From: a virus
DNA length: 41,056 bases
Virus genome (UHGV): UHGV-1383708
Direction: 5' to 3' (one strand)
This document shows, in pieces, positions 38,424-39,366 of this stretch. The stretch's first letter is position 1. Every line of letters starts with the position of its first letter. Position numbers and translations under genes: made by a program. The notes below the pieces were generated by a model that saw only the letters and a program-made list of their open reading frames with translations, searched no databases and was not told the origin of the DNA.

Positions 38424-38723
38424 GTGAGAAAGTTAAGCCGACTTGAAAAATATCACATGAACAAGGTTTCAATGCGCAGTCCGTCAAAGATTGTCGCCGT
38501 TACTCCTGCGGCGATAGAGATCGAAAAACGCGCGATTGAAAGAGAGAAAAAAGGGCAGTTCCGCATTGCCGCTCACCTTTGGCTTCAGTGTATGGATGTT
38601 GCTTCTGGTGATGTTGAGCGTGCAAGGATCGCGGTTCGCAGGGACCAATGTATCACAAAAGGTAACGGCCTTCGCCGTGGCGACTATAGCGGCATAGGAT
38701 GTTGTGGGGTGGTTTATGACTAA
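38424..38723 (+). CDS. Small regulator, PerC-like (tentative)
   Basis: 99 aa from GTG with GAGGG RBS; motif GQFRIAAHLWLQCMDVASGDVERARIAVRRDQC resembles PerC/Pch-type activators as I recall them. Confidence 0.4.
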   Translation: MRKLSRLEKYHMNKVSMRSPSKIVAVTPAAIEIEKRAIEREKKGQFRIAAHLWLQCMDVASGDVERARIAVRRDQCITKGNGLRRGDYSGIGCCGVVYD

Positions 38724-39366
38724 GAAATACACACTAATCTATGCAGATCCACCCTGGGTATACCGGGACAAAGCCGCAGATGGTAATCGCGGTGCCGGTT
38801 TTAAATATCCGGTTATGAGTGTGCTGGATATCTGCCGCCTTCCTGTGTGGGATTTGGCCGATGAAAACTGTCTGTTGGCCATGTGGTGGGTGCCAACACA
38901 ACCACTCGAAGCACTAAAAGTTGTTGAGGCCTGGGGATTCCGTCTGATGACCATGAAGGGATTCACGTGGATAAAATGTGGTAGTCGACAACCAGATAAA
39001 CTGGTTATGGGTATGGGTCACATGACTCGCGCCAATAGTGAAGATTGCCTGTTTGCAGTAAAGGGAAAACTACCTACGCGCATTAATGCAGGGATCGTTC
39101 AGTCATTTACCGCACCGCGGCTTGAGCATTCAAGAAAACCAGATATCGTTCGTGAAAAACTTGTGCAATTGTTAGGCGATGTTTCTCGCATTGAACTGTT
39201 CGCCCGCCAGTCGTCTCATGGTTTCGATGTTTGGGGTAATCAGTGCGAAGACCCGGCAGTGCAACTACACCCTGGATACGCGTTGGATATTGCCAGATTA
39301 ACAAATGCATTCAGCAATGCTCCGCTGTCACCAACAGACAACCAGGGGCGGGAGCGTGCAGCATGA
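38716..39366 (+). CDS. MT-A70 family DNA N6-adenine methyltransferase, orphan
   Basis: DPPW motif (LIYADPPWVY) near N-terminus; ~216 aa; no adjacent restriction enzyme gene. Confidence 0.7.
   Translation: MTKKYTLIYADPPWVYRDKAADGNRGAGFKYPVMSVLDICRLPVWDLADENCLLAMWWVPTQPLEALKVVEAWGFRLMTMKGFTWIKCGSRQPDKLVMGMGHMTRANSEDCLFAVKGKLPTRINAGIVQSFTAPRLEHSRKPDIVREKLVQLLGDVSRIELFARQSSHGFDVWGNQCEDPAVQLHPGYALDIARLTNAFSNAPLSPTDNQGRERAA

Follow-up and report, generated by a model that had tools for sequence, protein, structure and literature searches.

The closest described relatives of the locus analysed here are found in phages phiV10 and epsilon15, which carry the same two genes in the same operon; the phiV10 record names them 'transcriptional activator (PF06069)' (gp34, YP_512289) and 'DNA methyltransferase' (gp33, YP_512288). 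The first gene product shares a core with PerC, encoded on the EPEC plasmid pEAF, and with PchA/B/C, encoded on EHEC prophages; like the phage protein, all of these are small and located on mobile elements. The cryptic prophage CPS-53 of E. coli K-12 carries a further relative, yfdN, which has been termed the K-12 PerC homologue (PMC5931665). The ANR family (Aar and relatives) resembles the PerC family in consisting of small three-helix proteins, and both families have been tied to H-NS and AraC-type regulation (PMC5570504, PMC4764244), but ANR proteins are anti-activators, whereas PerC and Pch are activators.

The second gene product has the same MT-A70 catalytic domain with DPPW as ciliate MTA1/MTA9 (AMT1 complex) and METTL3/METTL14. 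These eukaryotic enzymes are larger obligate heterodimers with accessory subunits, whereas the phage enzyme consists of one protein of 216 aa and presumably forms a homodimer like other beta-class enzymes (PMC7544214). Among bacterial enzymes, M.EcoGI and M.EcoGII (PMC5778455) and M.EcoMV (PMC4659465) are silent prophage orphan m6A enzymes, thought to be activated upon induction to protect phage DNA; constitutive expression of such enzymes is harmful to the cell (PMC5778455, PMC4659465), and non-specific activity has been demonstrated for M.EcoGI and M.EcoGII (PMC5778455). The latter two resemble the phage enzyme in being prophage-encoded, in lacking a partner nuclease and in their beta-class motif order, but they differ in having a central target-recognition domain and in their branch of the beta class (PMC5778455). 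M.EcoGI, M.EcoGII and M.EcoMV are all 349-aa enzymes with DPPY, and we rejected them as members of the same family and use them as a functional analogy only. M.EcoGIX, a plasmid-borne ssDNA methyltransferase, was likewise rejected as a characterised relative.

We analysed the pair in a 41,056-nt stretch of DNA (virus genome UHGV-1383708; here called the window), which is a temperate podophage prophage of the phiV10/epsilon15 type, genus Uetakevirus. The region 37900-39700 (1801 nt) matches Escherichia phage EC.W1-9 and many E. coli prophages with 100% identity and phiV10 with 98.6%. Among 5426 complete E. coli genomes, 565 carry this stretch, nearly always as a single chromosomal copy, and in E. 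coli genomes the prophage is adjoined by guaA. RefSeq/PGAP names the two products "PerC family transcriptional regulator" (WP_001335975) and "MT-A70 family methyltransferase" (WP_000163456). Since the same names already stand in these and the phiV10 records, the gene pair is not new: it consists of ordinary, correctly recognised and already annotated accessory early genes of a very common prophage, shared by roughly a tenth of complete E. coli genomes. Apart from the annotated start of the PerC-like gene, nothing substantive distinguishes it from phiV10 and epsilon15. The finding as originally stated adds little to names that have been public for years in phiV10, epsilon15 and E. coli records; what annotation does not contain, and what is fresh here, is the linkage from PerC-like gene to methyltransferase and an ANR-like signature in the PerC core.

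The features of the region, in order along the window, are as follows.

34998-35012, no strand assigned: operator-like palindrome TTACCTGTTGGGTAA, first perfect copy, in the divergent control region preceding the repressor-like gene
35068-35652, plus strand: HTH repressor-like gene with two HTH_3 motifs, homologue of phiV10 gp40 and epsilon15 gp38
35673-35692, plus strand: intrinsic-terminator-like hairpin with T-run, closing the repressor-like gene; an annotated terminator in phiV10
35710-35724, no strand assigned: operator-like palindrome TTACCTGTTGGGTAA, second perfect copy, 20 nt upstream of the -35 hexamer
35744-35772, plus strand: sigma-70 promoter-like site TTGACA-17-AATTAT (10/12; consensus match only), candidate early-left promoter
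36257-37078, plus strand: PD-(D/E)XK exonuclease (DUF3799), same operon
37075-38016, plus strand: RecT recombinase, same operon, overlapping the exonuclease gene by 4 nt
38066-38314, plus strand: AlpA-family HTH or excisionase-like gene (PF05930, 24.2 bits; phrog_66)
38311-38427, plus strand: 38-aa membrane-protein ORF (phrog_17484), its stop overlapping the GTG of the PerC-like gene (GTGA)
38424-38723, plus strand: PerC-like gene, 99 aa, GTG start (Pfam, PHROG, junction and homologue evidence)
38526-38663, plus strand: PerC core domain, residues 35-80 (Pfam match, invariant columns, AF2 helices, ANR signature)
38716-39366, plus strand: MT-A70 family N6-adenine methyltransferase, 216 aa, ATG start (family, annotation and homologue evidence)
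38746-38757, plus strand: catalytic motif IV DPPW, residues 11-14, gatccaccctgg (homologue and MTA1 alignments)
39363-39557, plus strand: DUF1382 gene (105.7 bits), last gene of the operon, overlapping the methyltransferase gene by 4 nt
39561-40811, minus strand: P4-type tyrosine integrase (family profile match), convergent with the operon

The original prediction placed both genes in an early operon, and the layout of the region argues for this. The candidate promoter at 35744-35772 is flanked by operator-like sequence and is followed by two small ORFs and then by the genes for the PD-(D/E)XK exonuclease, RecT, the AlpA-like protein, the 38-aa ORF, the PerC-like protein, the MT-A70 enzyme and DUF1382. 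From the promoter down to 39557, no terminator-like site was found on the plus strand. The last four junctions, from alpA through DUF1382, overlap by 4, 4, 8 and 4 nt, with the start of the methyltransferase gene lying across the stop of the PerC-like gene in the 8-nt case (ATGACTAA). When up to three mismatches are allowed, the palindrome TTACCTGTTGGGTAA occurs at 13 sites in the window against 0.78 expected, and two of these are perfect; promoter-like sites in the region, five against 6.2 expected by shuffling, are not above expectation. Taken together, the promoter-like site, the palindromes, the lack of terminators and the overlaps support an early operon with translational coupling; the PerC-like and MT-A70 genes may thus belong to a single repressor-controlled transcription unit of a temperate phage. 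Judged from sequence patterns only, the operon is probably repressed in the lysogen.

The 99-aa ORF predicted at 38424-38723 on the plus strand, with a GTG start, is present. Annotation gives two shorter versions, starting at ATG 38457 (phiV10 RefSeq, 88 aa) and ATG 38472 (PGAP, 83 aa), neither of which has a good ribosome-binding site. We prefer the GTG because it is preceded by a Shine-Dalgarno sequence (GAGAGGG), overlaps the preceding stop by 4 nt (GTGA), as is typical of this operon, and aligns exactly with an ATG in four diverged homologues, and because residues 1-33 show conservation at the protein level (20-23/33 in three homologues and 12/33 in the most distant one). The longer form is better supported than the annotated starts, which are probably too short.

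Assignment of this protein to the PerC family, tentative in the original prediction, is borne out by Pfam: PF06069 matches residues 35-80 with 30.1 bits, where the curated gathering score, used as cut-off, is 22.6 bits. In the PHROGs, the protein matches phrog_868, 'transcriptional activator', over its whole length (1-99/99, E 6e-62). It is 40% identical to authentic EPEC PerC over 60 aa (E 2e-10) and to PchA of EHEC over 40 aa (E 1e-6), the references being PerC of EPEC plasmid pMAR2 and PchA of the O157 Sakai prophage Sp4; a tblastn search of plasmids with the 99-aa query did not reach the pEAF perC gene. On these matches, the protein is a genuine member of the PerC family. It shares with PerC and PchA/B/C a core of about 45-60 aa (LE.KG.YR.AA..W ... 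ER...A..R..C; 40% identical), but it differs from them in a conserved N-terminal extension of 33 aa and in the absence of their C-terminal tail, and in the alignment it thus falls short of the full-length architecture of PerC and group 1 Pch. The subfamily of this protein ranges over Salmonella, Citrobacter, Klebsiella, Enterobacter, Kosakonia and others. In an AF2 model, helices span residues 28-42, 46-59 and 63-77, and the conserved core is predicted to form a TPR-like three-helix unit without an HTH.

The NCBIfam model for ANR (NF033650) matches the 99-aa protein with 23.6 bits (E 3.4e-5), below its cut-off of 32; four of seven PerC-family proteins match it below cut-off (best E 3e-6). Six of the eight ANR signature residues (A, E, A, W, A, W, R, C, spread over three helices; PMC4983702) align without gaps, a number reached by just 3 of 50,000 shuffles (p ~6e-5). 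The matching positions, A37, E41, A49, W53, R72 and C76, sit on the predicted TPR-like helices of the PerC core. Homology between PerC and ANR was also sought by BLAST and hhalign with Aar and the few retrievable relatives, where the matches were not significant and the Aar-clade profile reached a probability below 1%; there is no mention of PerC in the 2014 ANR paper. The resemblance of the PerC core to ANR anti-activators is a lead, not a result.

For the methyltransferase, an ORF at 38704-39366 (220 aa, GTG start) had been predicted. The ORF is present, but its start is most likely ATG 38716, giving 216 aa, because this start is annotated in phiV10 and by PGAP and is the same in aligned homologues. 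Membership of the MT-A70 family is confirmed by Pfam, with PF05063 matched over positions 1-172 of 172 at 79.6 bits (cut-off 23.9). In the PHROGs, the enzyme matches phrog_359, 'DNA methyltransferase', with E 7e-121 and lacks about 116 N-terminal positions of that family. DPPW is intact, and in 17 aligned homologues P12 and W14 are invariant and D11 nearly so; its position near the N-terminus corresponds to the permuted beta-class motif order. The nearest solved relatives, aligned via DPPW, are ciliate MTA1/MTA9 (E ~4e-13), followed by METTL3 (E ~5e-6). Judged by these alignments, the protein is predicted to be a compact beta-class N6-adenine methyltransferase; it has little sequence beyond the catalytic domain. 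A search of viral contigs with the methyltransferase returned near-identical phages only and is uninformative on conservation.

The small size of the enzyme (216 aa) hints at a short or relaxed specificity, which is plausible. Its structure model (pLDDT 47.8) is too poor for a fold search or for judging whether there is a target-recognition domain; only the length and the Pfam coverage of the protein suggest that there would be no room for one. The numbers of GATC and CTGCAG sites in the window are not decisive for specificity. In the literature that we searched on phiV10/epsilon15-type MT-A70 enzymes, we found neither an assigned methylation motif nor any experiment, and we found no experimental data for either protein of the pair or for close homologues.

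The original prediction also described the methyltransferase as having no partner restriction enzyme. Applied to the 52 non-overlapping ORFs of the window, PADLOC returned a Type II methyltransferase (MTase_II) only and no endonuclease, and no restriction endonuclease is among the 25 listed of the 30 Pfam families matched in the window. The enzyme is thus an orphan as far as known nuclease models reach, although an unannotated ORF may conceivably encode a novel nuclease.

We also examined the arrangement of the pair in other genomes. A DNA methyltransferase gene lies on the same strand within about 1 kb downstream at all 64 PerC-like loci with enough flank (at least 1.5 kb downstream), namely at 28/28 near-identical and 36/36 diverged loci (63-77% identity). 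In 32 of the diverged loci this is an MT-A70 gene, and in the other four it encodes a 611-aa protein in which C-5 cytosine and Dam-type methyltransferases are fused. A gene for a 52-aa DUF1317 protein, for a 224-aa protein of unknown type or for a PDDEXK-like protein is often inserted between the two. Viewed from the enzyme, a PerC-domain gene is found within 4 kb at 22 of 72 species-level MT-A70 loci; all 22 are upstream and on the same strand, and 11 abut. At the remaining loci the enzyme stands beside NinB, NinG and similar genes.

In K-12, yfdN likewise encodes a PerC domain and abuts a DNA adenine methyltransferase gene, yfdM, on the same strand. YfdN is larger, its 164 aa including about 100 additional residues at the N-terminus, and we rejected yfdM as an MT-A70 gene, since its product is a truncated Dam-type enzyme (PF05869) unrelated to MT-A70. 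Three apparent PerC+MT-A70 fusion proteins (P0005, P0003 and P0237) were rejected as Rosetta-stone evidence, being frameshift or internal-deletion joins of overlapping genes. The perC and pchA genes have no methyltransferase neighbour: perC follows perA/perB and pchA is isolated in a late region, whereas the gene in the window lies in the early operon beside a methyltransferase. Exchangeable occupants of one slot are the behaviour expected of an early DNA-modification (anti-restriction) cassette. Because the enzyme occurs without PerC, and PerC and PchA occur without a methyltransferase, the linkage may stem from common use of a slot in the early operon and not from direct cooperation.

We consider it probable that the pair works within the early operon, with the methyltransferase guarding phage DNA, the PerC-like product acting as an anti-silencing or adaptor protein and the methyltransferase slot being conserved. 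The two genes would be the penultimate pair in the early-left operon (recombination/excision) of a podophage of the phiV10/epsilon15 type. This operon most likely starts at a repressor-controlled promoter near 35744 and is probably kept silent in lysogens, with expression beginning upon infection or induction. Translation would then proceed as a coupled chain through alpA, the 38-aa ORF, the PerC-like gene, the MT-A70 gene and DUF1382. By analogy with the prophage orphan enzymes, the MT-A70 enzyme most likely methylates replicating phage DNA early, so that progeny escape host restriction. The 99-aa protein, to judge from its analogy to Pch, is most likely a small anti-silencing or adaptor protein in early phage development, not a classical DNA-binding activator, and the position downstream of its gene would be a conserved slot for one or another DNA methyltransferase.

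The original prediction had associated the 99-aa protein with activators of host virulence genes. That it is a regulator of lysogenic conversion, acting on LEE1/ler like PerC or PchA/B/C, would fit its Pfam family, the 40% identity of its core to PerC and PchA and the infection of LEE-positive O157:H7 by phiV10. However, its gene lies inside a lytic/early operon without a promoter of its own, where pchA is isolated in the late region of Sp4, and the 25-40 C-terminal residues of PerC and PchA are missing, while the N-terminal extension is different and conserved. Members of the subfamily also occur in Salmonella, Citrobacter, Klebsiella, Enterobacter, Kosakonia and others, genera that to our knowledge mostly lack the LEE, and the E. 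coli isolates with 100%-identical prophages are of human, chicken, dog and dolphin origin. Family membership is in any case insufficient, as LEE activation is limited to group 1 Pch and the same-family proteins PchD and PchE do not activate it (PMC6265319). A role as host virulence regulator is therefore not supported, and we regard it as very unlikely; 'PerC family' should not be read as 'virulence regulator', since the gene here is one of the early genes of a phage and functions differ within the family. The PerC-like protein could instead regulate, target or buffer whichever methyltransferase lies downstream, as a cofactor, a timing regulator or a protector against methylation-dependent responses. 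The linkage at all 64 loci, kept even where C5+Dam replaces the non-homologous MT-A70, the uniform upstream, same-strand position of the 22 PerC-domain genes near MT-A70, the abutting Dam-type gene of another PerC subfamily in K-12 and the 8-nt overlap in the window speak for such coupling, as does the requirement of eukaryotic MT-A70 enzymes for partner subunits (PMC7544214; PDB 7f4l family). Nevertheless, synteny among related phages may be inherited rather than selected, the pair is often split by the DUF1317, 224-aa or PDDEXK-like genes, and the apparent fusions are artefacts. With a PerC gene near just 22 of 72 MT-A70 loci, the enzyme is independent of PerC; PerC and PchA in turn act without a methyltransferase neighbour, and a targeting subunit seems less needed by the 611-aa C5+Dam protein than by the 216-aa MT-A70 enzyme. 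We therefore judge coupling to be unlikely. A broader version, in which PerC-domain proteins were ancestrally companions of early-operon phage methyltransferases, that is, ANR-related TPR-like adaptors controlling or complementing an MT-A70, Dam-type or C5 enzyme (for instance, by setting the time or target of methylation or by counteracting nucleoid or methylation-dependent responses of the host), with PerC and Pch as domesticated, unlinked descendants, seems to us quite unlikely. The linkage across unrelated methyltransferase families in this sample and the ANR-like signature nonetheless give a testable hint at the original phage role of PerC-type proteins; the mechanism is poorly understood even for PerC and Pch.

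For the methyltransferase, the alternative to protection of phage DNA in the original prediction was altered host methylation. In this reading, the enzyme would be made in the lysogen and would rewrite the host methylome, as an epigenetic regulator or by 'vaccination' of the host chromosome. Orphan methyltransferases can regulate host genes (discussed in PMC4659465), and, with the repressor-like gene upstream on the same strand, transcription could conceivably run through the terminator at 35673. Yet this terminator, together with the operator-flanked promoter, stands between the repressor-like gene and the operon, prophage orphan enzymes of comparable type are silent in lysogens and harmful when expressed constitutively (PMC5778455, PMC4659465), and the E. 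coli methylome papers that we read contain no unexplained motif attributable to such an enzyme. Expression in the lysogen is thus highly improbable as the role of the enzyme. The chance that it acts on RNA, be it host or phage transcripts, rRNA or tRNA, is extremely remote. Its relatives METTL3/METTL14 do methylate mRNA, and beta-class M.EcoGII methylates RNA in vitro as well (PMC7544214, PMC5778455), but in bacteria and ciliates the clade consists of DNA enzymes (PMC4738411), METTL3 scores below the ciliate subunits for DNA m6A, which are nearest by sequence among solved homologues, and the same slot in related phages holds bona fide DNA methyltransferases (C5, Dam). Methylation of phage DNA is the role that we prefer. 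METTL3 and ciliate AMT1 arose from the MT-A70 clade, and the phage enzyme, a very compact bacterial representative of this clade, might be useful as a tool.

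PerC-domain genes were compared in metagenome loci L158-L229, species genomes L084-L155 and K-12 (L230:8113-8882). In all of the 64 informative PerC-like loci, those with at least 1.5 kb of downstream flank, a DNA methyltransferase is encoded on the same strand downstream of the PerC-domain gene. These enzymes represent families that are unrelated to each other, either MT-A70 or the C5+Dam fusion type. The Dam-type gene yfdM directly adjoins yfdN in K-12.

In most relatives, a 52-aa DUF1317 gene separates the PerC-like gene from the methyltransferase cassette. The window lacks this gene, and the methyltransferase takes its position with an identical 8-nt overlap. 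Several relatives encode a conserved protein of ~220 aa (N-terminus MKERGMIFNGEMVRA..GRKTQTRR; no Pfam match) after the PerC-like/DUF1317 genes and ahead of MT-A70; in other relatives, this place is taken by a PDDEXK_5-like protein of 168 aa, encoded immediately upstream of MT-A70. The genes were located as follows:

L213:2787-2945, DUF1317 gene (metagenome locus); 147-nt spacers in L085-L087 (species genomes) and L188-L224 (metagenome loci)
about 2942-3620, ~220-aa insert protein (metagenome loci L201, L208-L210, L215, L219, L220 and L224)

The PerC-like gene (38424-38723, plus strand) is annotated with 88 aa in RefSeq (phiV10) and 83 aa by PGAP, the region in question being 38424-38472 of the window. 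The ATG of diverged homologues lines up with GTG 38424, and the 33 N-terminal residues encoded from this codon are conserved between the PerC-like gene and these homologues. Judged from these alignments, both annotated start codons have probably been placed too late. At the opposite end, the terminal residues GVVYD (38709-38723) are invariant throughout the subfamily. The same DNA also holds the next gene's Shine-Dalgarno sequence and start codon, so the junction of the two genes, and not the protein, may account for this invariance.

The PerC core (38526-38654, residues 35-77) aligns without gaps to six of the eight residues of the signature of ANR, the AraC negative regulator family of Aar-type anti-activators. 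NCBIfam ANR matches of the core are sub-threshold, a profile-profile comparison with the Aar clade was not significant, and a whole-word search of one ANR paper, PMC4038620, did not find PerC. PerC and ANR may be remotely related.

Unlike phiV10, for which a single RecE-RecT fusion gene of 1761 nt is annotated (L001:1857-3617), the window encodes a PD-(D/E)XK exonuclease and RecT as two genes with a 4-nt overlap (36257-38016); the two are likewise separate in identical prophages annotated by PGAP. Sequence comparison shows a mosaic prophage built from Uetakevirus modules: phage EC.W1-9 covers only 59% of window positions 1-25000 yet matches the early region at 100% identity, and TL-2011b covers 84% of 1-25000.

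The palindrome TTACC-N5-GGTAA (TTACCTGTTGGGTAA) occurs at 13 sites in the window with at most three mismatches, compared with 0.78 expected; among them are:

34998-35012, perfect copy
35710-35724, perfect copy
2800, 4936, 5317, 6377, 24947, 32605, 32667, 34789 and 34950, further sites

The palindrome is probably an operator for the phage repressor, or for another phage regulator, at several promoters. The two perfect copies bracket the immunity region and the early promoter, and part of the remaining sites lie close to inter-ORF gaps in the ORF list of the window.
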